Position numbers and translations under genes: made by a program. From Candidatus Uhrbacteria bacterium (GTDB lineage: Bacteria > Patescibacteriota > Patescibacteriia > UBA9934 > GWF2-40-263): DNA of 64,000 nucleotides. The notes below the pieces were generated by a model. That model was not told the DNA's origin. It made no database searches and worked only from the letters and a program-made list of their open reading frames with translations. Shown one piece after another: positions 3,903-64,000 of this stretch; positions within the stretch are counted from its first letter, which is position 1; each line of letters starts with the position of its first letter. The stretch lies in contig JAERTI010000055.1 in assembly GCA_016844925.1 (NCBI GenBank), forward strand, positions 65,459-129,458. The letters run 5' to 3'.

Positions 3903-4565
3903 TTATTCAGCAGCCTTCTCTTCACCCTCAGCCTTCTCTTCCCCTTCAGCAGGTGTCTCTGCACCAGCATCACCAACTGGCTCATCAAGTTCAGCCATCT
4001 GTTTTGCTGTTCGTGGCTTACTGACTCCAGCAATGGTCAAGTTTGCATCACCAACAATCTCCATACCCTCTGGAAGCTCGAGGTCTGATACGCGAATCAC
4101 GTCATCAAATGTTGCAAGCTTGGAAAGATCCACCTGAATGGAGCGAACAAGCTTCGATGGGAGCGCTCGGACATTCACGGTATCTCGTGACTGCATCAGA
4201 GTTCCACCCAATGCCTTCACGGCAGCAGACTCACCAACGAGCTCGAGAGTTACAACCGCCTCAATCTCCTTATCCATATCTACGGATCGGAAATCGATGT
4301 GGATCACCTCGTCGCGAAGTGGGTCCAACTGATAGTCGTGAATCAACACGTGAAGAGGCTGTGCCTCAGCAACCTTGAGCTCGATAACGGAACTCTCACC
4401 AGCGGCTTTGTAGGTTTTAATAAATTGGTTTCGATCAACAGTAATCGACTGTGGATCAGTTCCAGCACCGTACACAACAGCAGGAACAAGACCTTCTCCG
4501 CGCAATACGGATGTTTTTCGGCCCTTTTCTGCTCGTGCCTGCGCTTGCAAGGTAATTTGAGACAT
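3903..4565 (-). CDS. rplY: Ribosomal protein L25 / general stress protein Ctc with acidic C-terminal extension
   Basis: 220 aa. The sequence is L25/Ctc-like (KGRKTSVLRGEGLVPAVVYG) with an EEKAEGEEKA tail. Confidence 0.8.
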   Translation of the reverse strand: MSQITLQAQARAEKGRKTSVLRGEGLVPAVVYGAGTDPQSITVDRNQFIKTYKAAGESSVIELKVAEAQPLHVLIHDYQLDPLRDEVIHIDFRSVDMDKEIEAVVTLELVGESAAVKALGGTLMQSRDTVNVRALPSKLVRSIQVDLSKLATFDDVIRVSDLELPEGMEIVGDANLTIAGVSKPRTAKQMAELDEPVGDAGAETPAEGEEKAEGEEKAAE

Positions 4566-22200: not shown

Positions 22201-22746
22201 ACATTCCTACCTTCAGAAGGGCCACCTGATGGTCACTTGCACGAGGCACCACCTGCACCTGAAGTGCCAGCGGGGCCCTCAGAAGGTCTTGAGAAAGCTC
22301 CGTTTGGAAACATGAAGTTCGATATTGCAGGAAAGGGTGATGTGCGCTTCACTTATGATGAAGATGGAAATGTAGACGATGTCTTCGTGCCTGGAAAATG
22401 GAACACGAATAGAGGTCTCATGAAAATTGCTTTGGCTGAGCAAGGCTACACCCCTGACAGCATCTCCGATGCATTTAGCGAAAGACGTGGAGGCTTGGGT
22501 CCAAAGGTTGATGGTGAATATGTCGCCCGAGATGCTCCTAAATACGCCGATACAGACACGAGTCACACTGGAGCTACTGCCGAAGATGAGGCACGAGCTT
22601 TTACGAAAAGCGTAACCAAACTGTATGTCCAAGAACGGGCACTAGAAGAAATGGCGCTACAGGACCTCGAAGACACACCAGAATACGCCGTACTAAAAGC
22701 CAAAACGGAATGGCTACGTGGAATCGTTGAAAAAGACCGTCCTTAA
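19267..22746 (+). CDS. Giant hypothetical protein (~1159 aa) with low-complexity acidic N-terminus (GADTGADTGADT, TDTPETPEAG)
   Basis: It is a single long ORF. The start is placed at the first ATG after the upstream stop. Confidence 0.6.
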   Translation: MHNPDTPTNPDDAGANPDDTTEPTGADTGADTGADTGANPDTGTDTPETPEAGTETPEGEGNDESSPFSRIADAFREKADRFMTMLRGERLPEEDDTEMSKTEMAKRGAKVGISVLATLGGYKGAWDVPAWFYQKFFTNPAERKRIKEALEEGIDEEDTASSPLEQKQLQIRAAIESSKFLSAEKKEKLFTKLRDAMTTHEGELVALDKERNEAIAQLLDEYITTRVKGTVALKEGVNTALHAAADATGLGVAMRLARSGTYGAVSLYERWDRVSQERETGAREGGQMKEFMKGFGETWDKLTLKGEGTKKEKALGFAAAAGTVGRFLGMGAIGVEAGLDTDAGQEMLNSMLDKFAGDSLPDAETTAETITPEVAGADTGAEAVTAEAADAIIADTESGTTIRLGESTFEASTEVGDVGPIEFETPQIELGTVRTGDGILKTLERQMEAAPQNFGYEGDLTDAKAIDAWAKSTAMEAARESGVVYAGGDVRLAEKAIDNLAVMAKPTAEGGISIVLVNNETGGYLSLEDAKAQGFTYESGTYAGGAKETEGTIARLDELKERSDEPTSLDFEPTPDVPHSLAGGAIRFEVGPGGELEFKRVIDTEWFNENKSSLEGMIDTGVFEESVPGAMEGVTDSTERLAGYKKILIVLEKKGLSESAEADFIRRRIALDLKTLDIYAPNFLNEENLTDLEDLSADVDLSTPFTEQVESSNQIDTIHVPGIGKVSFEYSSDGTPSMDWQNLQDEIGPGLRRQAKDLLTKGWEDDFGETRVGFLTEQAAQSVAAELYLKNQALNELITAGHDTSPEAKFLQLSIKADLLGNAGILNEDNPVIKSARRLTGLEPTVAAPPVAEVAKTVESVPLETGAPELTEVHEEAMRFMETNTELIQGYLDAEPGEKADRLSAFGENYATQIYEINNAGLEGKMSMAGADGTPLVFEFAFEKNGDVLDYTITGPDGTHANFSIEIDSATREPSTITTFLPSEGPPDGHLHEAPPAPEVPAGPSEGLEKAPFGNMKFDIAGKGDVRFTYDEDGNVDDVFVPGKWNTNRGLMKIALAEQGYTPDSISDAFSERRGGLGPKVDGEYVARDAPKYADTDTSHTGATAEDEARAFTKSVTKLYVQERALEEMALQDLEDTPEYAVLKAKTEWLRGIVEKDRP

Positions 22747-48885: not shown

Positions 48886-50259
48886 TTAGGCATTTTCCTT
48901 AATAAACGCAACGATTTCATCTCGCTTAGCTTCCATAGTCGCCTGATCCACAGCCTCCAAGTTCAAGCGCAGTTTCGGCTCGGTGTTGGACGCGCGGACA
49001 TTGAACCAGAACGTCTCGAACCGAATTGAGATCCCATCGAGCTCATTGAGCTCACCGTCGGCAAACTTCTCTTTAAGCATCTGCATCATGCCAGCCTTGT
49101 CCTCCACTTTGAAGTTAATCTCACCTGAGTGAACATATCGCTCCAGAGGCTCGACCATATCAGCAAGTGACTCTCCACGACGCGTAATCTCCTGCAGCAC
49201 CTGTGCCGCAACCGTCACCGGTCCCTCATACGTACCTGTTGGGAACGTGTAAAAGAAATGCCCAGATGACTCTCCGCCAAACACCGCCTCTTCACGGCGC
49301 ATCTGCTCTTTAATGAGCGAGTGCCCCACACGCGTAACAGACGGCTTCCCTCCTGACTCGACAATCATGTCCTCGGTAATTTTTCCTGGACGAATGTCAT
49401 AACAAATCGTTGCTCCAGGATTATCTCGCAACACAATTTGTGCGAGCATGCCGCGCAACACAGCCGGTGTGACGAGACGTCCTTTGTTGTCAATGAAAAA
49501 GATGCGGTCGCCATCGCCATCGGTTGTGATTCCAAGATCTGCACCGAGCTCAAGTACCTTCTTCTGAATGTCGACAATATTCTCTGGCTTAAATGGATCG
49601 GCCTCGTGGTTTGGAAAGTTCCCGTCGAACTCCCAGTACATGCGCGTCACGTCTGCCTCAACCATGCCAAACAATTCGTCGAGAAACTGCGCGCCCATCC
49701 CATTGGCACTATCGCAAACAATCTTCATCTTATTGATCGGATGCACGCCCGCATGAGCGAACTCTGCTTTGGCAGCCAAAGCAGGAATCCCTTCAACAAC
49801 CTCGACGGTTCCATGAACACGCTCTGCCACCTCATGACTAGCCTCGATCCAATCTGCCATGTCGCGAATCCCACTGTCTCCACTGACAGGAATCGCCATC
49901 TCGCGCGTAATCTTAAAACCGTTATAGGCCGCTGGGTTGTGTGAAGCACTCACCATGATGCCCCCATGAGCCTTCAAATGTCCGACACCAAAATAAAAAG
50001 CTGGCGTGGACACCAGACCAATATCTAAGACATTCACTCCACTCTCTGTGAGCCCCTCCATGAGGGCTTTTTGGTACCCCAAGGAACTCTCTCGCATATC
50101 TCGACCAACCACGACCGTCATGGCTGTCTCTGCTCCCACCTCTGGCTGACGAAGTGCTGCGTAGGCCTGACCAATTTTTTTCGCTAAATCTTGGGTAATC
50201 TCCTCCTCCACCAACCCTCGAATGTCGTACATTTTAAAGATGTGTTTTGGAATGCTCAT
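48886..50259 (-). CDS. Phosphomannomutase/phosphoglucomutase
   Basis: The active-site motif is SASHNPAAYNGFK. It has four alpha-D-phosphohexomutase domains. Confidence 0.85.
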   Translation of the reverse strand: MSIPKHIFKMYDIRGLVEEEITQDLAKKIGQAYAALRQPEVGAETAMTVVVGRDMRESSLGYQKALMEGLTESGVNVLDIGLVSTPAFYFGVGHLKAHGGIMVSASHNPAAYNGFKITREMAIPVSGDSGIRDMADWIEASHEVAERVHGTVEVVEGIPALAAKAEFAHAGVHPINKMKIVCDSANGMGAQFLDELFGMVEADVTRMYWEFDGNFPNHEADPFKPENIVDIQKKVLELGADLGITTDGDGDRIFFIDNKGRLVTPAVLRGMLAQIVLRDNPGATICYDIRPGKITEDMIVESGGKPSVTRVGHSLIKEQMRREEAVFGGESSGHFFYTFPTGTYEGPVTVAAQVLQEITRRGESLADMVEPLERYVHSGEINFKVEDKAGMMQMLKEKFADGELNELDGISIRFETFWFNVRASNTEPKLRLNLEAVDQATMEAKRDEIVAFIKENA

Positions 50260-50327
50260 ATGCTTTGACGGTGGGTCATGAATTTCGTACTATAAAGAGG
50301 TAAATAGCCTTTAATTGAAGGAAAATT

Positions 50328-50879
50328 ATGGAACTGATCTGGATACTTGTAGGCATCGTCCTCGTAGTGGCGATGTGGCTCATTCTAACATACAACGGAC
50401 TCATTCGATCGAAGAACCGCGTAGAGGAAGCTTGGTCAGATATTGAGGTGCAAATGAAGCGTCGCTATGACCTTATTCCCAACCTCATCAACACCGTGAA
50501 GGGCTATGCCAAGCACGAAGAAGGTGTATTCACAAAAGTAACTGAAGCACGTACGGCTGCCATGGGAGCAACTTCCATGGCTGACCACTCCAAGTCAGAA
50601 AACATGCTCAGCGAAACACTCAAGAGCCTGTTCGCTGTTTCTGAAAACTACCCACAGCTCCAGGCATCTCAAAACTTCCTTGAGTTGCAGCACGAACTTG
50701 CGGATGCCGAAGATAAAATCATGGCAGCACGTCGCTTTTACAATGCCAACACCCGAGACTTCAACACGAAACTCCAAGTCTTCCCAACCAACCTCATTGC
50801 AGGCGTGTTCGGATTTCTTGCTCGAGAGTTTTTTGATGCTCCGGAAGCAGAACTCGCAAAGCCTGAGGTCAAGTTCTAG
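50328..50879 (+). CDS. lemA: LemA family protein
   Basis: 183 aa with an N-terminal TM helix. The sequence is LemA-like. Confidence 0.8.
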   Translation: MELIWILVGIVLVVAMWLILTYNGLIRSKNRVEEAWSDIEVQMKRRYDLIPNLINTVKGYAKHEEGVFTKVTEARTAAMGATSMADHSKSENMLSETLKSLFAVSENYPQLQASQNFLELQHELADAEDKIMAARRFYNANTRDFNTKLQVFPTNLIAGVFGFLAREFFDAPEAELAKPEVKF

Positions 50880-50881
50880 CT

Positions 50882-51763
50882 ATGTATTCGCAAATTGATG
50901 CGAACAAACGAAAGACGTGGCTTCTCATTGTCCTGTTCACCATCGTTATTGTTGGCCTCGGCTGGGTTCTTGGTGAAGCAGGTGGCATAGGAAACGGCGG
51001 CATTGTCCTCGCGGTCATGCTGGCAACCGCCATGAACCTGATCGCCTATTTCAAAGGAGACTCGGTAGCCCTAGCAACGGCAGGAGCGAAGCAAATCAAA
51101 AAAGCAGACAACCCGAAGCTCTATCGCATGGTGGAGAACCTCTCGATCACCGCAGGGATCCCCATGCCAAAGGTGTACGTCATGAACGATCCGTCTGCGA
51201 ACGCATTTGCGGCAGGACGAGATCCGGAGCACGCCAGCGTTGCCGTCACCACAGGACTGCTCAACATCATGGAAGATAATGAGCTTGAGGGTGTCCTTGC
51301 CCACGAACTTTCACACATCAAAAACTATGACATCCGTGTCATGACCATCGTGATTGTGCTCGTGGGAGTCGTCATGCTGCTCAGCGACATCCTTCTGCGC
51401 ATGGCGTTCCGTGGCAATGGAAACCGCGACAACCGTGCAGCACTGGTCATGATCGTCATCGGCGTCGTCCTTGCCATCCTCTCGCCAATTTTTGCCGAGC
51501 TCATCAAGCTCGCCGTCTCACGATCACGCGAGTATCTCGCTGACGCCTCAGGCGCCCTCCTCACGCGCTACCCAGAAGGACTTGCCAGCGCCCTGGAGAA
51601 AATCGCAAAGCACGATCAGCCACTCAAGCGAGCCAACCACGCGACCGCTCACCTGTTCCTCGCCAACCCGTTTGATCCGCACGTCGCCAAAAAGTTCGAG
51701 TCCATGTTCTCTACGCACCCCCCTATCGAAGATCGCATTGCCAAACTAAGAGGAATGCTCTAG
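50882..51763 (+). CDS. htpX: Zinc metalloprotease HtpX (M48)
   Basis: The HExxH motif is HELSHIKNYD and TM helices are present. Confidence 0.85.
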   Translation: MYSQIDANKRKTWLLIVLFTIVIVGLGWVLGEAGGIGNGGIVLAVMLATAMNLIAYFKGDSVALATAGAKQIKKADNPKLYRMVENLSITAGIPMPKVYVMNDPSANAFAAGRDPEHASVAVTTGLLNIMEDNELEGVLAHELSHIKNYDIRVMTIVIVLVGVVMLLSDILLRMAFRGNGNRDNRAALVMIVIGVVLAILSPIFAELIKLAVSRSREYLADASGALLTRYPEGLASALEKIAKHDQPLKRANHATAHLFLANPFDPHVAKKFESMFSTHPPIEDRIAKLRGML

Positions 51764-51773
51764 CCGCCATCTT

Positions 51774-54272
51774 ATGAGCCATGACATCGTCGACAAATTT
51801 TCTTCCCACCTAAAAAACGTGCTCACGCGCGCTCTGTGTTTTGTGGTGGAAAAAAATCAAAAGACCATCCAGCCAGAACACCTCCTCTGGGCCCTTGGTA
51901 CACAGAAAGGTTGCATTGGTGCAGAGGTCTTGAAAAAAGCTGGTGTCAAAACAGCGGACCTAAAGAAGCTCGTTGGAGCAAAAGCAACGGTCACAGCCCT
52001 AAGCGCTGGCGCAGACCTCACGCTCCACCTCTCTGACGATGCCAAGCGTATCGTAGAAAAAGCCGTGCTCACGGCAAATGTGTATGGGCACCGCTATGTG
52101 GGTACAGAGCACCTGCTCTCGGGCATCATTCAAATCGATAGCCCCATCACACGTGCCTTCTTTGCACGTCACAAGACCGACCTCAAAGAACTTCGCAACC
52201 AGCTCTCCGTTGTTCTCAAGAGCACAAGTAAGTTTCCCGAACTTGCTTCATCCGTCACGGTCGAGAACGCCGACTTGCTCACACAAAACAGCAACAAGGA
52301 GAAGAGTGCGCAGCAATCCACCGGACAAGAAGAAGAAAAGAAGTCGTCCGCGTTGGAATACTTTTCTACCGAGCTTACAAGCGCTGAAGCGCAAAAACGT
52401 ATCGATCCAGTGATCGGTAGAGAGAAAGAGATTGAACGTCTCATGGAGATCCTCTGTCGTCGCACAAAGAACAACCCCCTCCTCTTGGGAGAGCCTGGTG
52501 TAGGAAAGACCGCCATCGTTGAAGGGCTTGCAAAGCGCATTCACGAAGGGCAGGTTCCGCCCGTCCTCGCACACAAACGTCTCTATGCTCTGGACATGGC
52601 CCTCATGATCGCCGGCACCATGTACCGTGGAGAGTTTGAAGGACGCCTCAAACAGGTCGTCGACGAAGTGAAGTCAAACCCAGACATCGTGCTCTTTATC
52701 GATGAGATCCACACGATCGTCGGCGCCGGTGCTGCTTCAGGTTCCATGGATGCCGCAAACATTTTGAAACCCGCTCTAGCGCGAGGTGACATTCGTTGTA
52801 TTGGTGCCACCACACCTGCTGAATTTAAAAAACACATTGAATCTGACACTGCTCTGGAGCGCCGCTTTGGAACGGTTATGATCGAAGAACCTTCGCAAGA
52901 AAAAGCTATTGAGATTCTCGAAGGTATCTCCCCCTACTACGAACGCTTCCACCGCGTACGTATTAGCCATGGGGCTATTGAACAAGCCGTGCGTTTGTCG
53001 TCTCGTTATATTCAAGACAAACACTTGCCAGACAAGGCCATTGATTTAATTGATGAAGCTGCGGCATCGACCCGCGTCCACCAGCACAACCCAGGACCCA
53101 TCATGAAAGAACGGGAGCTCTATGACATGCTCGACAGCGTACGAGAAGCAAAACGTCTCTCGGTCACAGAAGAACGGTTCCACGATGCCATCGCGCTCAA
53201 AGATGAAGAAGACTTGATTCGCCTGCGCATCGAAGGGCTCCGCACCGAGGAAGACACCTCCCCCGTTCCCGTTATTGCTGAAGAAGATATCGCTCGAGTT
53301 GTTTCTCGATCTACTGGTGTCCCCCTTGAGGATATGCTCGAAGGCGATCTCAGCCGACTTCTCGGACTGGAAACACAACTTTCCGATCGTGTCTTAGGGC
53401 AACCTTCTGTTATCGACACCGTCTCCGGAGCCCTGCGACGCGCCAAGACCGGCGTCGCTCACCCCGCTCGCCCATTGGCAAGCTTCTTGTTCCTTGGTCC
53501 ATCAGGCGTTGGAAAGACCGAACTCGCTAAGACCATCTCCGAACTGCTCTTCCACTCCAAGCAACACTTCATTCGCCTAGACATGTCTGAGTACTCAGAA
53601 GGTTTCACCATGTCAAAGCTGATCGGCGCACCGGCCGGCTACGTCGGCTATAAGGAAGGAGCAAACCTCACCGACCGTGTGAAACGACGTCCCTACTCTG
53701 TTGTGCTGTTCGACGAAATCGAGAAGGCACACCGCGATGTGCAAAACCTCCTGCTCCAAATTTTGGAGGAAGGTGAGCTTACCGATGCCACGGGTCGCAA
53801 GGTCAATTTCAAAAATACGATTGTCATCATGACCTCCAACGTTGGTCTTGAGCGTTTTGACCGTGGCGACATGGGGTTCATGTCTGGTGCCAGCGACCGC
53901 ATCATGGCACTCAACCAAGATCTTCACGAAGAACTTACGCAACGCTTCCGTCCAGAGCTCGTGAACCGTATTGACCACACCTGCATCTTCAACCCCCTCG
54001 AGCAGGACGTCTTGGAATCCATCGTTAAGAAACAACTGGACGAACTCACGGCTCGTCTGAAAGATCAGGGTCTCCACGTACACGTTGAAAAAACCCTCAT
54101 CCCCCACCTCACATCACTGTCACAACCAAAGTTGGGGGCACGAAATATCCGTGCACAAATTCAGAAGCACGTTGAACACGCGATCGCTGAACGCCTCAGT
54201 AAAAAAGATCGCCCAAGCAAACTTCGTGTGAAACTTAAAGGAAAGAACATCCAGGTAACCAAGTCTCGCTAG
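51774..54272 (+). CDS. clpC: AAA+ chaperone ATPase ClpC-like (two Clp_N repeats, two AAA modules)
   Basis: The motifs [15 protein letters not shown] and [12 protein letters not shown] are present. There is no long ClpB middle domain. Confidence 0.85.
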
Positions 54273-54273
54273 T

Positions 54274-56097
54274 ATGGTAACGGGGGGAGACGAACAACAA
54301 CGCTACCAGAAGTATCGCCAGCAATTGCACCAGGCGCGTCTTGAGGATGCCAAGAAAGCAGGAGGTACAGCTGGGACACAGGCCGGAGCAAAGACAAAAG
54401 GACAGATTAAGGGAGGTGATCTATTCACGCGCAAAGGCCAACCTGAGAGTATTCCAAAAAAAGGACAAGCTGGATCAAAAACCGCAGGGAGGATTAAAGG
54501 CGATGATTTGTTTCAGCGAGCACAATCTCAACCCTCACAACCCCAAAAAGACTCCACGCTGAAAGACAAAGCTCGAGACACAGCACGCACAGGCGCAGCG
54601 ACCGTTGAAAAAGGAGCGGCTGCCGTGGAAACGGGAGCGGCAACGGTTGAAAAAGGAGCAGCGACCGTAGAGACAGGTGCGGCAACGGTGGAATCGGCTG
54701 CAAAAGGCACCGAAACCGCTGCACAGGGAGCTGAGGCATTAGCGAAGGGAGTTGGCGCTGCATCAAAGGCAACAGGTGCCGCATCAACGGCAGCTCTTGA
54801 AGCGGGTGAAGCTCTTTCTGCAACAGGTCTGGGATCCATTGTTGGCGTCCCTCTGGCAGCCCTTGGTGGTGCAGGTGCCGCCGCCTCAAAGGGGACTGAA
54901 GCCGCTGCGACAGCCGGAGGAGCGGCTGCGAAGAGCGTGAAGGAAGGAGCGAAAGTTGTTGGCGAGGGGGCAAAGGATGTGAAAGAAGGGGCTAAGGAGG
55001 TAAAGGAAGGCGCTCAGAAAGTAAAAGAAGGCGCCCGCAACGTGAAAGAGCAGGCTGGGGACGTTAAAGATGCTCTGAGTGAAGACGACGAACAAGATCA
55101 AGAAGAACTCCCTGAGGAGACACGTGACCGGATAAGAAAGATTCGTCTTGCTGGCGCGCGCATGCGTCTTTCAGATGCACGTGATCGCACACAAGAAAAA
55201 GGTCTCTCCCCTACGCGTTTTGAGATGGGACGAAAACATTTTGGTGTCACTGACCCAGACAGACCAGACGAACTCACAAGGACCCCTGGTGATGGTACGC
55301 GAGATCTTTTTGATGCCGGCGAACAAGACATGAAACGCAAGGCAGCACTACGGACCGCCCGCATGGCAGAACTCGTTGGTGGTAAAAAATTTGCTGGCAA
55401 ACTTAGGCAAGGGGTTGCAAGTCCGGCTGCGCTCAAGGGCGGGCAACTAGGAGAACTTCCACGTGGTGGTGTGCAGACAAAGGACACGACCAAACAACCT
55501 GACACAGGAGCTGACACGGCACAACAGATGCAAGATGACATGACTATGCGCCACAGACTTGCACAGGTCATGATGACGCGACAACGCAAGCAACAACTTG
55601 CTCAACAGAAATCTCAAAAAGAGCAGAAGGCCATCGAAGAGCAGCGCGCCGAGGTGAAGCAAACAATGAAAGCCGGCTTCAGGCGCGGCATGATTTACAT
55701 CGTAGATCTCGTCGCCGTTGCCCTTGATCTCTCTAGTGGATTCATCTCGTTCTTGATCGACATGTTTATCTATATGTTCTCCCTTGGTTGGCTGAATCTT
55801 GAGATGTTCTACGGAAAATGGATTGCCAAAGGAGAAAGCCGATACATCTCCCCCATCTCTTGGGCGCCATTTAAAATGCCTGTCGATAAAGACGCCTTCA
55901 TGCTCCAGGGCCTTATTCTCATGGCTGACCTTGCTCTCATGATAGCTTTTGCCATTGTTACTACCGGCACCTTCTGCATTCTTCACGACTACATGCTCCT
56001 GGTCACAGACCCCTTTCTGGTCGCCACCTCCCTTGCAAACGGCGGGGGAAAGATGTGTCTAGGTGGTATACTAGGATCACTTGTGAGCGGCATTTAA
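54274..56097 (+). CDS. Repeat-rich LEA-like protein with C-terminal TM helices
   Basis: It has 11-aa repeats (ATVEKGAAAVETGAATVEKGAATVE) and KEGAKxVKEGA repeats. The C-terminus is hydrophobic. Confidence 0.5.
   Translation: MVTGGDEQQRYQKYRQQLHQARLEDAKKAGGTAGTQAGAKTKGQIKGGDLFTRKGQPESIPKKGQAGSKTAGRIKGDDLFQRAQSQPSQPQKDSTLKDKARDTARTGAATVEKGAAAVETGAATVEKGAATVETGAATVESAAKGTETAAQGAEALAKGVGAASKATGAASTAALEAGEALSATGLGSIVGVPLAALGGAGAAASKGTEAAATAGGAAAKSVKEGAKVVGEGAKDVKEGAKEVKEGAQKVKEGARNVKEQAGDVKDALSEDDEQDQEELPEETRDRIRKIRLAGARMRLSDARDRTQEKGLSPTRFEMGRKHFGVTDPDRPDELTRTPGDGTRDLFDAGEQDMKRKAALRTARMAELVGGKKFAGKLRQGVASPAALKGGQLGELPRGGVQTKDTTKQPDTGADTAQQMQDDMTMRHRLAQVMMTRQRKQQLAQQKSQKEQKAIEEQRAEVKQTMKAGFRRGMIYIVDLVAVALDLSSGFISFLIDMFIYMFSLGWLNLEMFYGKWIAKGESRYISPISWAPFKMPVDKDAFMLQGLILMADLALMIAFAIVTTGTFCILHDYMLLVTDPFLVATSLANGGGKMCLGGILGSLVSGI
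54590..54720 (+). repeat. Tandem 33-bp coding repeats (11-aa units)
   Basis: The unit gcgaccgttgaaaaaggagcggc is repeated with variation. Confidence 0.6.
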
Positions 56098-56118
56098 CCT
56101 TGCCGTAAATCCCATGCT

Positions 56119-57351
56119 ATGACCGAACGAACCAAAAAAATCTTACTCATCGTGGGCTTTATCGCGTCCGTGTTCGGCATCGCGTTAGTCTTGTACCTGA
56201 TGTTCTTCCGCCCCCCAGCCCCAGCTCCTACCGTTGAAGAAATTGAAGAGCTGTACCCTGAAGCGCTTCCGGAAGCTCTTGAAGCGCAGGTGCGAGAACT
56301 TCTTGAACAGGAAGGCATTGCCGTTCCTGAAGAAATTGTTCTCCCGGAAGCTGACACCATCGCACGTGGCGGCGTAACGCAGACCACCGAGCTCACAACC
56401 ACAGCCGTCTACAACACCTCAATCTCTGCTGACGGTTCATCCATGAACTACTACAACAGCGGAGACGGACGGTTCTATACCATTGGTGAAGACGGAACCG
56501 TCGTAGCACTCTCTGATAAACAGTTCCCATCCGTTGAGAACGTTGTTTGGAACAAAGACTCAGAAAAAGCGGTCCTCGAGTTTCCAGATGGTTCCAATAT
56601 TGTGTATGACTTCTCCGCGGAAAAACAGGTAACGCTACCTAGTCACTGGGAAGACTTCGACTTCTCCCCTGTGCAAGACGAGATTCTCGCTAAGTCCATT
56701 TCCCTTGATCCAAACAATCGCTACCTAGTGATCTCTTCTGATGACGGTTCTCAAGTGCAATCCATCCAAGCCCTGGGAGAAAATGCCGATAAGGTCGACG
56801 TAAACTGGTCTCCAAATGACCAAGTTGTCGCATTTGCTGATACAGCAAACGCCACTTCAGGAGGGCTCAATCGATCTGTCATCTATCCTGTTGGTAAAAA
56901 CAAGGAAAATTACAAAGGCCTCGTGGTTGAGGGATTAAACTTCGACTCCCTCTGGTCTCCCGATGGTCGGCAGTTGATCTACTCCGTAACGGGTTCTTAT
57001 AGCAACGACAAACCTCTGCTATGGGCTGTCAGTGCAACCAGTGCAACCATGGGTGAAGACCGACGGAGCCTTGGACTCAATACCTGGGTTGATAAATGCA
57101 CCTGGGCATCCAGCTCCATTGCGTACTGCGCCGTACCAATCGACCTTCCAGACAACGCTGGTCTTGGTCGACATCTTTACGAAAACGAACCTGACGCCCT
57201 CTATAAACTTGACCTCTCATCAGGTCGATCAACACTCGTAGCGATTCCTGAAGAAGATACGGCCATGAACGACCTCTTTTTAACTGATGACCAGTCAGTA
57301 CTGTACTTCTCAAACACCTACGGACAGATTGAGATGATGCGTCTAAAATAA
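56119..57351 (+). CDS. TolB-like beta-propeller (PD40/WD40-like repeats) membrane-anchored protein
   Basis: It has an N-terminal TM helix and the repeats WSPNDQVVAF and WSPDGRQLIYS. Confidence 0.55.
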   Translation: MTERTKKILLIVGFIASVFGIALVLYLMFFRPPAPAPTVEEIEELYPEALPEALEAQVRELLEQEGIAVPEEIVLPEADTIARGGVTQTTELTTTAVYNTSISADGSSMNYYNSGDGRFYTIGEDGTVVALSDKQFPSVENVVWNKDSEKAVLEFPDGSNIVYDFSAEKQVTLPSHWEDFDFSPVQDEILAKSISLDPNNRYLVISSDDGSQVQSIQALGENADKVDVNWSPNDQVVAFADTANATSGGLNRSVIYPVGKNKENYKGLVVEGLNFDSLWSPDGRQLIYSVTGSYSNDKPLLWAVSATSATMGEDRRSLGLNTWVDKCTWASSSIAYCAVPIDLPDNAGLGRHLYENEPDALYKLDLSSGRSTLVAIPEEDTAMNDLFLTDDQSVLYFSNTYGQIEMMRLK

Positions 57352-57362
57352 CCTTACATCCT

Positions 57363-58010
57363 ATGCACCACAGATGGCTCACCCTCCTATCAATCGGCGC
57401 CTTATCCCTGATGGTGTTTATCTTTTTCATTGTTTACCTCCAGCCGGTTGAGCTCCCTGAGATTGAACTTGAGGTAGAAGTCGGCTCTCTCACAAAACCA
57501 ACGATCACCTTCGTGAATCCTACCAAGGGCGCAGAAGAACCCGTGGTGCGCATTGTGGAGTTTAGTGATTTTCAATGTGCCGCTTGTAAGACGGTTGCTA
57601 CCTCACTTGAGGTAGTCCTGGCCACCTACCCCGAGCAAGTTCAGCTCGTTTGGAAAGATCTTCCAAATGAATCGATTCATCAATTCGCCACCCCTGCCGC
57701 CATAGCCGCGCACTGCGCAGACCAACAAGGACAATTTTGGACGTACCACGATGAGCTCTATGCTCGTCAAAGTTACCTTTCTGAAAACCAGTTTTCCACC
57801 ATTGCCTCAACCATTGGTTTGGATATGGATAAATTTGAGAGCTGCTACCAAGCACGCGACACACTCCCTATTGTGAAAAAAGATTTCGAAGAAGCTCTCG
57901 GACTCGGTCTCACCTCCACCCCAACACTCTTTATCGGCGATGAGATCGTCATCGGTGCTGTCAGTTCTCTGGACCTCTTGGACATGGTTGAAGCTCAACT
58001 GAACCAGTAA
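57363..58010 (+). CDS. DsbA-family thiol:disulfide oxidoreductase
   Basis: It has an N-terminal TM helix and the CxxC motif FQCAACK in a thioredoxin fold. Confidence 0.7.
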   Translation: MHHRWLTLLSIGALSLMVFIFFIVYLQPVELPEIELEVEVGSLTKPTITFVNPTKGAEEPVVRIVEFSDFQCAACKTVATSLEVVLATYPEQVQLVWKDLPNESIHQFATPAAIAAHCADQQGQFWTYHDELYARQSYLSENQFSTIASTIGLDMDKFESCYQARDTLPIVKKDFEEALGLGLTSTPTLFIGDEIVIGAVSSLDLLDMVEAQLNQ

Positions 58011-58011
58011 T

Positions 58012-59130
58012 ATGCGAACCTTGCGCGCCCTCCCCTTCTTGATGATCCTCTTGGGCGCGTTTTTGTTTGGAGGCACTGCCTTGGCAGAAGACGCCACGTC
58101 CACAGATGCCACAGCCACACCTGCTACAAGCGAGGTGGTTGAAGGAGCTATCATCCCAAACCTCACTGTCGACATCCCCGGCCTGACGTTTTCCTCGGTG
58201 ATTGAAAAAGACGGATCTTTGCACATCAACTTCTTTGGGGAGTACATGGCGGCCCTCTACAAATATCTCCTCAATATTGGCGTCACCATTTCCATTGTCC
58301 TTATCATGATCGGAGGTCTTCAATGGGTTCTTAGCGCAAGTGGCACAGATGCCAAAGGAGCCAAAGACCGAATTCGCAACGCCGTCGTCGGCCTCGTGCT
58401 CCTGATGAGCGTGTACATGATCTTATTTATTGTAAATCCGAACCTTGTTCTTCTGCAGACTCCTGCCATCAAGGGTATCGACGAGGTAGAACTTGAGCTT
58501 GCCACCAGCGGAGAAGAGGGTGCTGCCGGCACCATGAGCAACGTTGAATGCCAAAACATTGTCGATGAAGCTCAAGAAGACGGCGAATGTAAGATCAGTC
58601 AAAAATTTGCCTCCCCCACTGGAAGGAGTGCCAGTTGCAACTACCACTTCCGTGATTCAGGTGGTGACTACAAAAAAATCAAAAATCTCGACTTCGCAGC
58701 TGGATGGGATACCTTGATCAAAGCTCCTTTCGACGGAACCCTCACCTACAAAAAGCGAACCTCCGCTGATAACCGCTGCGGAAACACCATCACGCTCACG
58801 GGTACGGGTGATGCTGCTGGAGCAAGTATTTCTATCTGTCACGTAAAAGATTTCCTTGATGAATCCGGCGTAGTGAAAACGACCGTGGAGCAAGGAGAAG
58901 GGATCGGGCACCTGGGCGGCGTCTGTTGTAGCGGAGAAGAAGGCCCGGCCAGCTGGCGTGCCATGCAAAACGGCTGGTGCACTGACACCGGAACAAAATG
59001 TACCGATCCCTACAGCCGAGAGAGCTGCACCTGCCAACCCATCGAACAATCCGGCAACACCTCCGGTCCACACGTTCACGTTACATGGAGCAATACTGCT
59101 GGTAATCTATTAGCATGTCTGGAAACGTAG
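58012..59130 (+). CDS. Secreted/membrane-anchored Cys-rich M23-like peptidase
   Basis: It has a signal peptide and two hydrophobic helices. The C-terminal motif SGPHVHVTW is M23 HxH-like. There are more than 12 cysteines. Confidence 0.5.
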   Translation: MRTLRALPFLMILLGAFLFGGTALAEDATSTDATATPATSEVVEGAIIPNLTVDIPGLTFSSVIEKDGSLHINFFGEYMAALYKYLLNIGVTISIVLIMIGGLQWVLSASGTDAKGAKDRIRNAVVGLVLLMSVYMILFIVNPNLVLLQTPAIKGIDEVELELATSGEEGAAGTMSNVECQNIVDEAQEDGECKISQKFASPTGRSASCNYHFRDSGGDYKKIKNLDFAAGWDTLIKAPFDGTLTYKKRTSADNRCGNTITLTGTGDAAGASISICHVKDFLDESGVVKTTVEQGEGIGHLGGVCCSGEEGPASWRAMQNGWCTDTGTKCTDPYSRESCTCQPIEQSGNTSGPHVHVTWSNTAGNLLACLET

Positions 59131-59134
59131 TGTT

Positions 59135-60199
59135 ATGAAACACCGCAACCTCTTCACTCCCCTGATCGCTCTGACAACCCTCTTGCTGGGCCTCTCTTTT
59201 AGTGGCACGGCCTTGGCTGAATCAAAGTTCCTCACCCCAAAGATGTCCGTGGACATCCCTGACCTGAAATTTACGGAGATTGTCCAAGAAGGAACCTCTC
59301 TTCAAATCAACTACCTGGCCGATTACATCTCCGCTATCTATCTTTGGTTGATAGGTTCTGCGACACTCATCGCCATTGTCATGATCATGATTGGTGGCCT
59401 GCAATGGACACTCTCTGGTGGATCCATCATGGGCGATGGTGGAAAAAGCTCAGCCTCTGCCGCTAAGACACGAATTAAGAATGCCGTCATTGGCCTGGTT
59501 CTGCTCATGTCTACGTACATGATTCTGTTCATTGTGAATCCCAACTTGGTTCGACTCGCGTTCCCAGAACTTGAAGCCATCCCTCTTGTGGATCTCCCAA
59601 ATGAATCAGGTACAAACCTGGAAGACTACGAGTGGGCTGAATCTACGGCCGTCAGCAACGGAGCCAACGGATGGAACGATGTAGTCATGTATAACCAGAA
59701 GAGCTATGAATCGACCCCTTACGGCGTCTGTGGAAACGTAAAGACCTCTGGTTGTGGTGTTGCCTCCTATGCTATGGCTGCCTCACATCTCTCTGGCACG
59801 GAAGTGAAACCAGACGAGGTGGCCGCTAGATTTGCCGATGAAGGTTACCGTGTATGCGCTGAAGGTACTGAACCAAACCCAGAAGGCCCCTGCAGTACCT
59901 GCCAAGGAACAGCAGCAGCCGCATTCTTCCAGTCTAGCTACCGATCTGAACTTGGCATCGAGGGGAACTACATCGGACACACGCAAGCAGACATCACGAC
60001 AGCGCTCGATGCGGGTCAACTCGTCATTATTTCTTACAGAACAAAAGGTGGTGGTGGTCACTATGTGGTCATTACCGGCTATGATGAAGACGGAAATGTT
60101 CTGGTAAATAACCCTTGGGGAGGCACAAAAGAAAAACGAAGCTGGAGCCAGATCACCAGTACGATTAAATCCGCTACAGCCATTCGAAAATCAAGCTAG
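59135..60199 (+). CDS. Secreted/membrane-anchored papain-like (C39-like) peptidase
   Basis: Its N-terminal module is paralogous to the preceding gene. The Cys motif CGVASYAMA and the His motif GGGGHYVVITGYD are present. Confidence 0.5.
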   Translation: MKHRNLFTPLIALTTLLLGLSFSGTALAESKFLTPKMSVDIPDLKFTEIVQEGTSLQINYLADYISAIYLWLIGSATLIAIVMIMIGGLQWTLSGGSIMGDGGKSSASAAKTRIKNAVIGLVLLMSTYMILFIVNPNLVRLAFPELEAIPLVDLPNESGTNLEDYEWAESTAVSNGANGWNDVVMYNQKSYESTPYGVCGNVKTSGCGVASYAMAASHLSGTEVKPDEVAARFADEGYRVCAEGTEPNPEGPCSTCQGTAAAAFFQSSYRSELGIEGNYIGHTQADITTALDAGQLVIISYRTKGGGGHYVVITGYDEDGNVLVNNPWGGTKEKRSWSQITSTIKSATAIRKSS

Positions 60200-60200
60200 T

Positions 60201-61508
60201 ATGTTCGTCTGTACAAACTGTGATGCCCAGTCAGCCAAGTGGGCAGGAAAATGCATGGAGTGTGACAAATGGGGCACGCTGCAAAAACAGGAGGAGGTCC
60301 GCTTAAGCGGTCCTCTTAAGTCTGTAAAAGTAACAGCAGGTACCAGCAAGCCACTCAAGGATGTTGGTAAACAAAACGAACACGACCGCATCAGCACAGG
60401 CGACGGCGAGACCGACCGCGTCCTGGGCGGCGGAATCGTCCGCGGATCTCTCGTCCTGCTCTCTGGTGAACCCGGCATTGGAAAGTCGACCCTCGTGGCG
60501 GCCATTGCTGGTTCGATTAAAGAGACCGTCTTGTATGTATCCGGCGAGGAATCCCCTACACAACTTGCAGCACGATTCGCACGACTGGGTAAATCTGTCG
60601 ATTCTGTCCGTGTCCTCGACCCCCTCCCGATTGAAACTCTCGTCGCTACGATTGAGAAAGAAGCCCCCGCCCTCGTGGTCGTCGATTCTGTTCAGACACT
60701 CTCCTCTTCACAGCTCGACTCCACCGCAGGCTCCCCCACCCTCGTGCGCTACGCCACCTCCCTCCTGCTCGACCTCGCCAAGCGCACAAACATCTCCGTC
60801 CTGCTGGTAGGCCAAGTCACCAAGGACGGCTCCATCGCCGGCCCTAAGACCCTAGAGCACCTGGTCGATGCCGTCGTGAACCTAGAGGGAGATCCCGTCC
60901 ACGCCTACCGCATGCTCCGCGCCAGTAAGAACCGCTTCGGCGCCACAGATGAGATCGGTGTGTTCGAGATGAAACAAGAAGGCCTCGTGGCAGTACCAAA
61001 CCCATCCGAGAGATTCTTGGCAGAGAGGTCCAACACCCCAGGCTCTGTCATAGCCGCCATGGTAGAGGGCTCACGAGTCTTCTTAGTCGAGGTCCAGGCC
61101 CTCGTAGAAAAAAGCAGCTACGGCACCCCAGTCCGCCGCGCAAGTGGCTTTGACCAAGGACGCCTACAAATGCTCATCGCCATCCTCTCAAAACGCGCCG
61201 GCCTAAAACTCGGCGAGATGGATGTCTACATCAACGTCATAGGAGGTATGAAACTCACCGAACCAGGAGCCGACCTAGCTGTCTGCGCCGCAATCAACGG
61301 CGCATTCAAAAACACCGTCGACGAAGCCGCAACGGTGTACATGGGTGAAGTTGGATTGGGGGGTGAAGTGCGGTCCGTGCCTATGATCGAGAAAAGGTTG
61401 GTAGAAATAGCCCGGCTGGGATTACCACGAGCAGCAGTGCCAGCGAAGAGTCGAGGAAAGAGTAAAGGACTGGAGATTGTGAAGGTTGGAAACGTGAAAG
61501 AGTTTTAA
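60201..61508 (+). CDS. radA: DNA repair protein RadA
   Basis: It has an N-terminal zinc finger, the Walker A motif GEPGIGKST and a Lon-like C-terminal domain. Confidence 0.9.
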   Translation: MFVCTNCDAQSAKWAGKCMECDKWGTLQKQEEVRLSGPLKSVKVTAGTSKPLKDVGKQNEHDRISTGDGETDRVLGGGIVRGSLVLLSGEPGIGKSTLVAAIAGSIKETVLYVSGEESPTQLAARFARLGKSVDSVRVLDPLPIETLVATIEKEAPALVVVDSVQTLSSSQLDSTAGSPTLVRYATSLLLDLAKRTNISVLLVGQVTKDGSIAGPKTLEHLVDAVVNLEGDPVHAYRMLRASKNRFGATDEIGVFEMKQEGLVAVPNPSERFLAERSNTPGSVIAAMVEGSRVFLVEVQALVEKSSYGTPVRRASGFDQGRLQMLIAILSKRAGLKLGEMDVYINVIGGMKLTEPGADLAVCAAINGAFKNTVDEAATVYMGEVGLGGEVRSVPMIEKRLVEIARLGLPRAAVPAKSRGKSKGLEIVKVGNVKEF

Positions 61509-61537
61509 ATAGAAAAACACCCTTATGCGAAGGGTGT
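61509..61537. terminator. Bidirectional terminator (acaccctt-cgcat-aagggtgt)
   Basis: The hairpin has flanking A/T runs. Confidence 0.6.
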
Positions 61538-62248
61538 TTATTTCAACTCATCAAGAAAACGAGGATATTTACTCAGATCTATTGCCTTTGCAAACTCAGA
61601 AACCCTATAAGTTCTCTCCATTATTTCTGGTTCTTTTTCTCCGTCTATAGATTCTTGTACACATTCTTCATCCACCAATCTTCGAGACTCAAAATTCTGG
61701 TATACAATTCCCACAATCTCATTTAGAGAATTCAATATTGGACTGCCAGACATTCCAGGAACCGATGAAAAACTAACTTCTAGATAATGTTGAGCGGGAG
61801 TATCTAAATCGAAGGCCGTTCTCACTAAGTAGCCTTTCAGAAACCGAGGTCTAAGGAATATTTTAAAATCTGAATTAAAAGCCTCGGGAAAACTATAGTT
61901 AGTGTAATCATCCCCCAACACCTTTTCTTCTCTTAAATCTAAAGCTAAAGGTTGATATAAATTAGAACAACTCTCTGAGACTCGTGCTAAGGCAAGGTCA
62001 ACGTGTTCATGATATTTTATGTCCGTTAAACCACATAACCTTTCTTTTCCTTGAGAGTAGACTGTTCCACATATACTCGCCGGGTAACTTTTGGCTGAAC
62101 GCAACACATGTGCGCATGTAAGGACCAAACCGGAACCTATATATACACCTGTACCAAGAAGATCTATTTTTTCTATTTCCCCCGGAGGCCCTGGACTCAC
62201 ATCAACAATCGGAAATATACTTTCACCAATAGAATGAATATTAATCAT
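61538..62248 (-). CDS. Trypsin-like (S1/PA clan) serine protease without signal peptide; low-GC insert
   Basis: The His motif is TCAHVL and the Ser motif is GMSGSPIL. The gene is about 37% GC against about 52% in the backbone. Confidence 0.65.
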   Translation of the reverse strand: MINIHSIGESIFPIVDVSPGPPGEIEKIDLLGTGVYIGSGLVLTCAHVLRSAKSYPASICGTVYSQGKERLCGLTDIKYHEHVDLALARVSESCSNLYQPLALDLREEKVLGDDYTNYSFPEAFNSDFKIFLRPRFLKGYLVRTAFDLDTPAQHYLEVSFSSVPGMSGSPILNSLNEIVGIVYQNFESRRLVDEECVQESIDGEKEPEIMERTYRVSEFAKAIDLSKYPRFLDELK

Positions 62249-62253
62249 ACTAA

Positions 62254-64000
62254 TTACTCCAAATGAACCTTATCAAAACTCTTCTCTACCCTCTCCTTCA
62301 CTAATGGATGTTTTTCTAAATCTGAATCTACTTCCAGAAGCTCTGCGGCCCTATCGCGGGCTTTTTTCATTATATCGACGTCAGCTGGGGTGGCGAGGGT
62401 GAAGTCTGGGAAGCCGGACTGGGCGTTGCCGAAGACGTTTCCTGGGCCTCGTAGTAGCAAGTCCTTCTCGGCAAGCTCAAAGCCGTTCGTGCTCTCAACC
62501 ATCGCCTGCAACCGTGCCTCACTATTCTCAGAAAGACTGTCTGGTAACAGATAGCAGTAGGACTGAATGTCAGATCGACCCACGCGACCCCTTAGCTGAT
62601 GCAGCTGCGCGAGACCGAAACGCTCGGCGCCGACGATGACCATGACCGTTGCGCCGGGGATGTCTACTCCTACCTCGATCACCGTTGTAGAGACCAGGAC
62701 GTCTATCTTTCCTGCGCGGAACTTCTCAATAGTCTTTTCTTTTTCGTCTGGTTTTAACCTGCCATGAAGTGTCTCAATCTTGAGGCCCTTGAGGGCTCCC
62801 CCTGAGAGCTCCTTGGCCACCTCGCTGACAGACTTAGCACCAAGCTTGTCAGACGGGTCGATGAGCGGGCAGACCACGAATGTCTGCTGGCCCTGCTCGA
62901 TGAGCCCGCGAACATGGCCCCACATCCCCTCTTGCTGTGGCTGTGGTACCAAAGCTGTCGCAACCGGCAAGCGACCCGGCGGCATCTGGTCGAGTACGGA
63001 AAGATCGAGGTCGCCGTAGATCGACAGCGCGAGTGAGCGTGGGATAGGTGTAGCGGTCATGGAGAGCAGGTGCGGCGCTGGACCGTCGCCTGTGTCGAGG
63101 AGTGCGTGGCGCTGCTCTACGCCAAAGCGGTGCTGCTCGTCGACAACAATAAGGCCAACATTGGGAATCGAGATGCGGTCCTGAAGGAGCGCGTGTGTAC
63201 CAACAATAATCTGCGGCGTCTCGACGTTGCTCGACGAATATTCAAAGAGACTCTTATCAACATCCTGATCCCCAACTTTCGACATCGTTCGTGTTAGCAA
63301 ACCCACTGGCTCATCCAGGAATACTGAGAGGGCTGCGTGTTGTTGGGCAGCGAGAATCTCGGTCGGAGCCAGATACACAGCGTTGTACCCAGCCGCATTC
63401 ACACTCTTAATCGCTGCGGCAGCGACAACAGATTTTCCTGCTCCCACATCTCCTTCAAGCAAACGGTTCATAGGGTGAGGCTTATCTAGATCCTGCACAA
63501 TCTCCCAAACAGCTTTACGCTGGGCGCCCGTAAGCTCAAACGGCAGGCCGCTGACAAACGTCTTGAGCAAATCCTCATCAAGAGGGATCGGATGTGCCTT
63601 GGCGAGCGTTCTATCAGAGCGCACGCGGGCGAACATCATCTGGTGTAAGAAAAGCTCGTCAAACTTGAGTCGAACAATCGCGCGATCTAGTTCTTCTCGA
63701 GACTCAGGAAAGTGCACCCCCTTGAGGGCCTCTGTTAATCCAAGCATGGACTCTTTCTCAAGAATCTCCGCTGGCATCCAGTCCACCATCTCTTCTGCCG
63801 CAGGGAGCGCGGCACGAATAGCGTCACGCAAGCGTCGCATCGTGATCGATCCTGTCAGACCGTACACCGGCACAATGCGGCCGGTGTGCGTTGATGTGCT
63901 TCCCTTCTCGATGATTGGGTTCACCATGGAGAGGCCGTAGCGATCACTAATCCGGCCAGCGAGCGAAAGCTTGGCTCCGGGCCTGAGCGTCTTCTCAAGA
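62254..64000 (-). CDS. recG: ATP-dependent DNA helicase RecG (partial; N-terminus beyond the window)
   Basis: Helicase motifs GDVGAGKS and DEQHRFGV are present. The reading frame stays open upstream of the first ATG to the window edge. Confidence 0.85.
   Translation of the reverse strand, partial: LEKTLRPGAKLSLAGRISDRYGLSMVNPIIEKGSTSTHTGRIVPVYGLTGSITMRRLRDAIRAALPAAEEMVDWMPAEILEKESMLGLTEALKGVHFPESREELDRAIVRLKFDELFLHQMMFARVRSDRTLAKAHPIPLDEDLLKTFVSGLPFELTGAQRKAVWEIVQDLDKPHPMNRLLEGDVGAGKSVVAAAAIKSVNAAGYNAVYLAPTEILAAQQHAALSVFLDEPVGLLTRTMSKVGDQDVDKSLFEYSSSNVETPQIIVGTHALLQDRISIPNVGLIVVDEQHRFGVEQRHALLDTGDGPAPHLLSMTATPIPRSLALSIYGDLDLSVLDQMPPGRLPVATALVPQPQQEGMWGHVRGLIEQGQQTFVVCPLIDPSDKLGAKSVSEVAKELSGGALKGLKIETLHGRLKPDEKEKTIEKFRAGKIDVLVSTTVIEVGVDIPGATVMVIVGAERFGLAQLHQLRGRVGRSDIQSYCYLLPDSLSENSEARLQAMVESTNGFELAEKDLLLRGPGNVFGNAQSGFPDFTLATPADVDIMKKARDRAAELLEVDSDLEKHPLVKERVEKSFDKVHLE

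Follow-up and report, generated by a model that had tools for sequence, protein, structure and literature searches.

How does a bacterium that lives on the surface of another microbe open a way for a secretion channel, and with which enzymes? A large part of bacterial diversity belongs to the Patescibacteria, which live attached to other microbes, and type IV secretion systems (T4SSs) and VirB2-like pilins are essential in the single species of the group that has been tested genetically. To our knowledge, nobody has established what the Patescibacterial T4SS does or how it gets across two cell walls. The question is raised here by a locus of an uncultured, ultra-small organism, Candidatus Uhrbacteria bacterium, in a stretch of 64,000 nucleotides (nt) that we call the window (assembly GCA_016844925.1, contig JAERTI010000055.1, positions 65,459-129,458, forward strand). 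Two adjacent genes in it, D and E, encode membrane proteins in which a predicted T4SS pilin module carries a predicted hydrolase. We favour, with somewhat more confidence than doubt, the reading that proteins of this type are DsbA-folded wall hydrolases mounted on a pilin stem and serving the T4SS, a functional analogue of VirB1, PrgK and CwlT. The two genes and their parts are as follows.

58012-59130, + strand: gene D, open reading frame (ORF) of 372 amino acids (aa), pilin stem plus M23 head
58012-58086, + strand: predicted signal peptide of D, aa 1-25, from the sequence and its hydrophobic segment, with putative cleavage between GGTALA and ED
58138-58494, + strand: pilin-like module of D, aa ~43-161 (module hidden Markov model (HMM) 6e-49, PF18895 1.6e-5, AlphaFold2 secondary structure)
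58540-59130, + strand: predicted catalytic head of D, aa ~177-372, M23/LytM fold, pLDDT >90
59135-60199, + strand: gene E, ORF of 354 aa, pilin stem plus C39_2 head
59219-59596, + strand: pilin-like module of E, aa ~29-154 (module HMM 7e-51)
59675-60199, + strand: predicted catalytic head of E, aa ~181-354

A preliminary description, made from the letters of the window, had called the N-terminal ~150 aa of D and E paralogous. Indeed, the two proteins share 45% identity across 159 N-terminal aa (E-value 7e-38) and have no similarity past that point, and every motif quoted in that description is present (LxVDIPxLxF, IMIGGLQW and NAVxGLVLLMSxYMILFIVNPNLV in the shared part, GPHVHV in D, CGVASYAMA and GHYVVITGYD in E). 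In the AlphaFold models the PxLxVDIPG...IN motif folds into a small beta-hairpin, which comes after a signal helix and before two long helices with a short connecting loop. In the module of D the PNLTVDIPGLTF beta-hairpin comes first, then two helices (74-110 and 114-141) with a basic loop between them, the second helix closing with VNP, and finally a short strand; the module of E is modelled as a beta-hairpin plus a two-helix hairpin (helices 35-70 and 80-109 in module numbering). Loop residues K86, R88 and I89 are near-invariant, with the K/R character conserved. A six-frame HMM scan of the window detected the module twice, in D and in E only, and no further weak pilin-like ORF was found at E-value <=1 in the window or in any of the loci described below.

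What, then, is this stem? Full-length D and E match the T4SS_pilin family PF18895 with E-values of 1.6e-5 and 1.7e-5. The E module scanned alone scores 27.6 bits, above the family cut-off of 26.6, and so scanned in isolation all 32 sampled modules match PF18895 (best 3.8e-16), while nine of the 32, D and E not among them, also match the TrbC/VirB2 family PF04956 (best 1.4e-5). By its profile matches, the shared stem is thus a VirB2/TrbC-like T4SS_pilin module (PF18895) typical of Patescibacteria and not a novel anchor. It is, however, carried by proteins of 372 and 354 aa with heads of ~200 aa, and D and E are therefore not the small stand-alone subunits expected of T4SS_pilin proteins. The preliminary description had likened D and E to the VirB1/PrgK-type enzymes of secretion or conjugation machinery, and had named VirB2/TrbC among the families to compare with the shared module. 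Its link to such machinery is strengthened by the pilin family assignment and by the T4SS core genes that lie nearby in relatives, whereas the single-helix anchor of the VirB1/PrgK type gives way to a pilin homologue.

The likeness to pilins could in principle be a compositional artefact of two hydrophobic helices, D and E then being ordinary paralogous anchored enzymes. The full-length proteins score 25.3 (D) and 25.2 bits (E), slightly below the PF18895 cut-off. Alignment of the module with seven annotated VirB2/TrbC proteins of proteobacterial plasmids by hhalign was not significant (E-value 0.095, probability 0.6%), Foldseek with the module alone returned no pilin structure, and a sequence-profile search of the PDB with the module alone returned no match. 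We consider this explanation highly improbable and largely refuted already, given the 32 of 32 modules matching PF18895, the matches to PF04956, the adjacent T4SS genes and the behaviour of a module profile, which retrieves 17,402 representatives at E-value <=1e-10, among them a protein with six PF18895 domains (P0113, 2.9e-71). Because the hhalign comparison was not significant, we claim membership of PF18895 only and do not claim that the module is an Agrobacterium-type VirB2. A holin/endolysin-like or SAR-anchor reading was also considered and is rejected in view of the cleavable signal peptide, the strong family-level pilin HMM matches and the absence of phage context.

Conservation within the stem is also informative. 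Mean pairwise identity is 0.47-0.55 in helices 1 and 2 and 0.43-0.49 in the catalytic heads, but 0.27-0.30 in the linker. Since the stem helices are conserved like the heads and far above the linker, they probably make sequence-specific packing contacts, a pattern that would be unexpected for a passive anchor and argues for more than tethering.

The heads themselves bear out the two peptidase assignments of the preliminary description, a Cys-rich M23-like domain in D and a papain-like C39-type domain in E. For D, the top 22 PDB matches of the head in Foldseek are all M23/LytM proteins and include NMB0315 (2e-6), ShyA, LytM, lysostaphin and the LytM domain of PrgK (8s0u). Across 30 sequences there is no variation at H212, D227, H354 and H356 and almost none at H277 and about ten cysteines. 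The spacing is unusual, with the first His and the Asp 14 residues apart instead of in an HxxxD arrangement, and a Cys-rich insert of ~40 aa between GHLGG and GNTSGPHVH splits the GxxG...GPHxH motif. D itself scores 22.1 bits against Pfam M23, under the cut-off of 28.7, and PF01551 is recorded for most of its homologues. Judged by modelled fold and catalytic residues, the D head is nevertheless a real M23/LytM metallopeptidase. The head of E matches Peptidase_C39_2 over aa 182-328 (1e-15; 59 bits against a cut-off of 24) and Peptidase_C70 (4e-5). Among 17 homologues its Q188, C207 and H309 never vary and N325 hardly does, and by sequence it is a papain-like C39_2 cysteine peptidase. A bacteriocin-processing C39 peptidase was considered as well and does not fit; the score of E against PF03412 is borderline (22.1 bits against a cut-off of 22), and neither E nor its neighbours contain an ABC transporter domain.

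Is this pair a local peculiarity or part of a family? Homology searches with D and E gave a set of 94 proteins, all of which, where an organism is named, come from Candidatus Uhrbacteria, Parcubacteria or Patescibacteria. All 94 consist of the module followed by at least 170 more residues, and one of them bears the plain NCBI name 'pilin'. Clustering of their C-terminal parts yields at least ten head classes, nearly all the identifiable ones being peptidoglycan hydrolase families. The classes are distributed over the 94 proteins as follows.

Larger classes: M23, 40; C39_2, 17; one unknown class, 15; VanY-like, 10
Smaller classes: NlpC/P60, 3; SLT-like, 2; M15_4, 2 (separate singletons); Amidase_2, 1; GDSL plus SLT, 1
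Unclassified singleton heads: 3

In a 50%-identity library of 1.84 billion representatives, the module profile retrieved 60,747 sequences at E-value <=1e-3 and 456 at E-value <=1e-30 (the count at <=1e-10 is given above). The 456 are mostly 300-670 aa long with the module at residues 30-250. SLT is the canonical VirB1 domain, and it recurs in this larger set: one protein has several modules and a strong SLT domain at its end (P0099, 1.5e-21), and another joins the module to SLT and a GDSL lipase (P0166). The literature searched yielded no account of proteins that fuse a pilin to a hydrolase, nor of exchanged heads.

Two further features of the family were observed. Some members are poly-pilins with two to six tandem T4SS_pilin domains in one polypeptide (P0113, P0099, P0105; six in P0113). 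In many homologues (P0052-P0056, P0061, P0068, P0072 and others) a further Cys-rich stretch of 60-100 aa (CxCY...C...C) separates the signal peptide from the module; D and E lack it, and P0224 has a Dickkopf-like Cys-rich region there.

How has one stem come to carry so many heads? A direct view is given by three metagenomic contigs (L005-L007) that are collinear with window positions 49148-64000 at 87-94% DNA identity and whose E orthologue is 95% identical. Their collinearity with the window is broken twice, at 58440-59134 and at 61556-62246, the latter being the region of a trypsin-like gene described below. The first break, from comparison with the ~88% identical L005, delimits the following feature.

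58440-59134, + strand: exchangeable cassette, linker and M23 head of D

Similarity is lost at codon 143 of D, the P of VNP at the end of helix 2, and regained at the start codon of E. The stem of the corresponding protein in these contigs is ~76% identical to that of D and bears an NlpC/P60-like head instead of M23. This NlpC/P60-headed stem is the nearest relative of the D stem, the M23-headed stems of other genomes being at most 64% identical, and stem similarity does not track head class. A survey of the slot between the DsbA gene and radA, covering 30 species-level genomes (GTDB scan with a seven-sequence module alignment) and the metagenomic loci, shows one or two pilin-hydrolase genes in it, with differing head combinations in 28 or more species. 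Two-gene slots hold M23+C39_2, NlpC/P60+C39_2, C39_2+VanY, M23+SLT-like, M23+VanY, VanY+Amidase_2, M23+M15_4, M23+NlpC/P60 or GDSL/SLT+VanY, and single-head slots also occur, including a lone VanY or a lone C39_2. From these comparisons it appears that recombination swaps the heads, with the VNP motif at the end of helix 2 as the point of exchange.

Such a pattern recalls polymorphic antibacterial effectors (cf. X-T4SS, CdiA and Rhs systems), in which case the stem would be a trafficking domain and the heads toxins that the T4SS releases or delivers and that lyse or weaken cells of a host or competitor. A constant N-terminal module with variable enzymatic heads and a recombination breakpoint exactly at the module boundary is what such a system would leave behind; the heads (M23, NlpC/P60, amidase, SLT, GDSL lipase) overlap the known interbacterial effector repertoire, and the weak PDB sequence matches of the E head are CdiA toxin domains (E-value ~5e-3). 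Still, we regard this as improbable. There is no immunity-type ORF and no room for one, with 4 nt between D and E and 1 nt between E and radA; the heads are tethered to a two-helix membrane hairpin, with no conserved cleavage site demonstrated; and the producer has peptidoglycan itself, as indicated by an FtsW/RodA gene in the window.

Directly upstream of D lies a gene that the preliminary description had already connected with disulfide formation in the Cys-rich hydrolase.

57363-58010, + strand: gene C, DsbA-like, ORF of 215 aa

Gene C matches Thioredoxin_4 (82.5 bits, 5e-23) and DSBA (54.4 bits, 2e-14), has the active site C-A-A-C and a hydrophobic N-terminal anchor at aa 4-34, and is by sequence a membrane-anchored DsbA-like thiol:disulfide oxidoreductase. 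In 34 of 38 loci a DsbA gene stands immediately 5' of a pilin-hydrolase gene, and this adjacency is kept even in distant loci that otherwise share no synteny (L029, L033, L034). After the signal peptide D has 12 cysteines and E five (catalytic C207 and four others), against a family median of 13. This association supports the earlier suggestion, and the Cys-rich heads are probably folded oxidatively by this DsbA.

Do D and E belong to a T4SS? The gene order LemA-HtpX-ClpC-A-B-DsbA-(one or two pilin-hydrolase genes)-RadA-RecG, with recG on the minus strand, is kept in nearly all Uhrbacteria loci, and the block from ClpC to RadA is conserved in 28 or more of them. The preliminary description had proposed a check of other contigs for T4SS or pilus genes. 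Where contigs extend beyond recG, the minus strand carries a comF-like gene, a gene for a 191-aa membrane protein, VirB4 (P-loop_TraG/DUF87), a TraC-like gene and PrgI; VirB4, TraC-like and PrgI genes lie 3-9 kb downstream of the pilin-hydrolase genes in L003, L005-L007, L009, L012, L015, L018, L021 and L022. As the window stops in recG, the T4SS cluster would lie just past its end; exact-sequence look-ups with D and RadA, aimed at the DNA beyond, returned no record. In two distant loci (L035, L036) PrgI, TraC-like, VirB4, two small ORFs and the pilin-hydrolase gene are contiguous on one strand. The module HMM found no stand-alone pilin within ~10 kb on each side (less at contig ends) in 37 loci and the window, so that in the vicinity of these T4SSs VirB2-like proteins other than the fusions may be lacking. 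As a separate observation, small GIY-YIG nuclease ORFs at 4185-4487 and 5984-6298 of L035 flank PrgI and the TraC-like gene just upstream of VirB4, and may be homing-endonuclease-like insertions.

The same neighbourhood can be read differently. D and E could be housekeeping autolysins that remodel or split the cell's own wall, the hairpin being a mere anchor and the nearby T4SS a matter of lineage synteny. This would fit a fixed chromosomal position amid ClpC, RadA and RecG, observed in all Uhrbacteria loci examined, a copy number of one or two per locus, no adjacent immunity gene, and heads (M23, NlpC/P60, VanY, amidase) that are classic division and remodelling enzymes. It fits poorly with the turnover of head class among close relatives and species at one slot, with stem helices conserved like catalytic domains, unlike a passive anchor, and with distant members that lie within T4SS operons (L035, L036) or are fused to SLT, the VirB1 domain. 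We hold the autolysin explanation to be unlikely, though by no means negligible.

The reading that we prefer, wall hydrolases on a pilin stem serving the T4SS, can be laid out as a sequence of steps. D and E would be Sec-exported membrane proteins in which a flexible linker of ~30 aa connects a constant ~120-aa stem to an exchangeable head of ~200 aa. Along the stem, a short beta-hairpin would lie outside the cell, ahead of helix 1, and a basic loop in the cytoplasm would link helix 1 to helix 2; from the positive-inside rule and the likeness to VirB2-type pilins, we infer an N-out/C-out topology, which would place everything after helix 2 outside the cell. The membrane-anchored DsbA encoded upstream would fold the Cys-rich heads oxidatively, and the pilin stem would direct both enzymes to the type IV secretion apparatus, whose genes lie within a few kb. 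Local cutting of peptidoglycan would then let the T4SS channel or pilus cross the epibiont wall, the host wall at the contact site, or both. VirB1, PrgK and CwlT do the same job in other T4SSs. Heads may exchange freely because any wall-cleaving activity would serve, or because the wall chemistry of hosts differs. It is presumed here that the substrate is peptidoglycan, most of all in the case of E, that the enzymes cooperate with the T4SS, and which wall they target, including that of the host.

Several points weigh against this proposal, besides the sub-threshold scores of the full-length proteins and the searches with the module that gave no significant match, described above. The linkage to a T4SS rests on orthologous loci, and radA and recG lie between the two clusters; the window, which ends inside recG, contains no recognisable T4SS gene in its 64 kb. 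The block sits at a fixed chromosomal site amid housekeeping genes, which also fits a housekeeping role. C39_2 and C70 include true proteases, and the substrate of E may thus be protein instead of peptidoglycan. In the literature searched there is no experiment on any member of the pilin-hydrolase family.

A bolder version is conceivable, in which the stem is a true pilus subunit and proteins of the D/E type co-polymerise into the T4SS filament or form it, giving an 'enzymatic pilus' that bores through host peptidoglycan. Because both termini of VirB2-type pilins face outward, such a filament would be studded with wall-degrading enzymes, and heads would be swapped between strains to suit the wall chemistry of different hosts. 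We think this rather unlikely.

The remaining genes bear on the extent of the putative operon. Those that surround C, D and E, together with two sequence elements, are listed here.

50265-50293: promoter-like site preceding LemA
50328-50879, + strand: LemA, upstream context gene
50882-51763, + strand: HtpX/M48, upstream context gene
51774-54272, + strand: ClpC-type AAA+, upstream context gene, 1 nt between its end and the start of gene A
54274-56097, + strand: gene A, ORF of 607 aa
56119-57351, + strand: gene B, ORF of 410 aa
60201-61508, + strand: RadA, starting 1 nt past the stop of E and closing the co-directional array
61515-61539, no strand assigned: hairpin with a 10-bp stem between the convergent radA and trypsin-like genes

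The preliminary description had treated A to E as an operon of five co-directional genes separated by 2-22 nt. Their ORFs, strand and coordinates stand; the gaps are instead 21 (A-B), 11 (B-C), 1 (C-D) and 4 nt (D-E), and the five are not a self-contained unit. LemA, HtpX, ClpC, A, B, DsbA, D, E and RadA (50328-61508) form one array of nine co-directional genes in which every gap is at most 21 nt, and the hairpin at 61515-61539 is the sole strong terminator-like element within 50-62 kb. It is worth noting that clpC and radA bracket the A-B-DsbA-pilin-hydrolase block (51774-61508 in the window) across Uhrbacteria. In Bacillus these two genes stand side by side in an operon, and the block gives the impression of having been inserted into an older clpC-radA linkage.

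Two names given earlier to genes in this array do not survive. Gene A had been called LEA-like. Its long N-terminal half is of low complexity and includes two arrays of 21-nt/7-aa repeats (KTAGRIKGGDLF x2) with 3-4.4 copies, not 11-mers, no LEA family matches at E-value <=1, and we reject the LEA assignment. No Pfam or NCBIfam family covers gene A, a homology search returned four matches only, all lineage-restricted, and its counterparts in most Uhrbacteria are 230-330 aa long, the conserved part being the hydrophobic C-terminal domain (aa ~470-607). Gene A is best regarded, on sequence, as a lineage-specific membrane protein whose N-terminal half is a low-complexity expansion. Gene B had been called TolB-like. 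It has a membrane anchor at its N-terminus (aa 5-33) followed by a PD40-type beta-propeller in which a single repeat exceeds the cut-off (28 bits against 20.9); with 20.5 bits against an equivalog cut-off of 343 for TIGR02800, and Tol-Pal genes not present, it is rejected as a TolB orthologue. Gene B is found beside the DsbA and pilin-hydrolase genes in nearly all syntenic loci.

Elsewhere the window holds housekeeping genes (gyrB, dnaE, pheST, thrS, gatB, miaA/B, tyrS, ftsW and others), and neither a tRNA gene nor an Rfam family at gathering score occurs at positions 1-64000. Between radA and recG lies a gene for a trypsin-like S1 peptidase (61538-62248, - strand; Trypsin_2, 4.5e-16), with a GC content of 37.8% against ~51% in its surroundings; the relative L005 has an unrelated 229-aa gene in its place, and by sequence it looks like a recent insertion. 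Two ORFs on the + strand have no Pfam match. One, of 540 aa (9967-11589), lies in a 2-kb bin of 62% GC (10001-12000) and holds 'GVGPAIAGRLISAIGNIERF' plus Cys-rich zinc-ribbon-like motifs; it resembles the C-terminal domain of IS110-family transposases and may be a mobile element. The other, of 1224 aa (19072-22746), is strongly acidic, with short Thr/Asp/Gly-rich repeats (TGAD and similar) towards its N-terminus.

What is new here is that known Patescibacterial pilins and T4SS-type hydrolases occur as modular fusions whose cassettes are exchanged at a conserved locus. The fusion acts as a Rosetta stone, since it joins parts that are encoded separately in Saccharibacteria and in virB1-virB2 operons. 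A family of several hundred proteins thereby connects pilins with the cutting of walls, provides candidates for the VirB1 function that is missing and suggests how epibionts breach cell walls. The heads, their catalytic residues and their proposed dependence on DsbA are concrete testable reagents, and rapid head exchange at a fixed locus is a possible genomic marker of host range for uncultured lineages.

How does this arrangement compare with systems already described? Quinonero-Coronel et al. 2025 (PMC12102498) describe MPF-FATA-like T4SSs of Patescibacteria with VirB2-like pilins (PF18895/PF04956) in arrays of 2-11 pilin genes, place radA, recG and comF in the T4SS loci of ABY1, and report that a recognisable VirB1 is generally absent from Patescibacteria with such pilins. 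In Southlakia epibionticum, as shown by Wang et al. 2023 (PMC10633639), the T4SS cluster is essential and has six short PF18895 pilins, and the supplementary tables of that study contain separate lysozyme/Cys-protease and M15B-like proteins beside virB4. A 2025 review (PMC12857230) concurs on these points. The stems of D and E belong to the same Pfam family as the S. epibionticum pilins SEML1_0014-0019 (PMC10633639, PMC12102498) and share with them a signal peptide, a two-helix hairpin and a basic loop; both groups contain tandem paralogues and lie near MPF-FATA-like T4SS genes (VirB4, PrgI), for the D/E type as seen in related loci. However, the S. epibionticum-type pilins are stand-alone proteins of ~125-190 aa with ~25% identity within arrays, whereas stems of the D/E type are ~50% conserved. 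Only the latter have the extra pre-helix motif of ~30 aa (PxLxVDIPG...) and a linker with a ~200-aa enzyme, and unlike the S. epibionticum pilins they stand with DsbA in a separate ClpC-RadA block.

PrgK (pCF10), TraG (pIP501) and CwlT (ICEBs1) of monoderm systems and VirB1 of diderm ones are likewise tethered or secreted wall hydrolases that serve a T4SS. These are anchored by a plain N-terminal helix or carry a signal peptide, while D and E use a pilin homologue. PrgK joins LytM, SLT and CHAP in one polypeptide, and cassette swapping is not reported for proteins of its type; D and E together offer a metallopeptidase and a cysteine peptidase without an SLT or muramidase domain, although other members of the family have SLT. 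With CdiA-CT, Rhs and the Xanthomonas X-T4SS effectors, the D/E type shares a constant N-terminus, a variable enzymatic C-terminus swapped at a conserved junction and many peptidoglycan-targeting heads, but unlike polymorphic toxins it has no immunity genes, keeps its heads on a membrane hairpin and occupies a single syntenic chromosomal slot without orphan cassettes. Finally, the gene order virB1-virB2-virB3, in which the gene for the lytic enzyme adjoins that for the pilin, holds in all seven proteobacterial plasmids inspected and parallels the coupling of hydrolase and pilin described here. In these MPF-T systems the two are separate proteins with the hydrolase first, whereas in D and E they are one protein with the pilin first.

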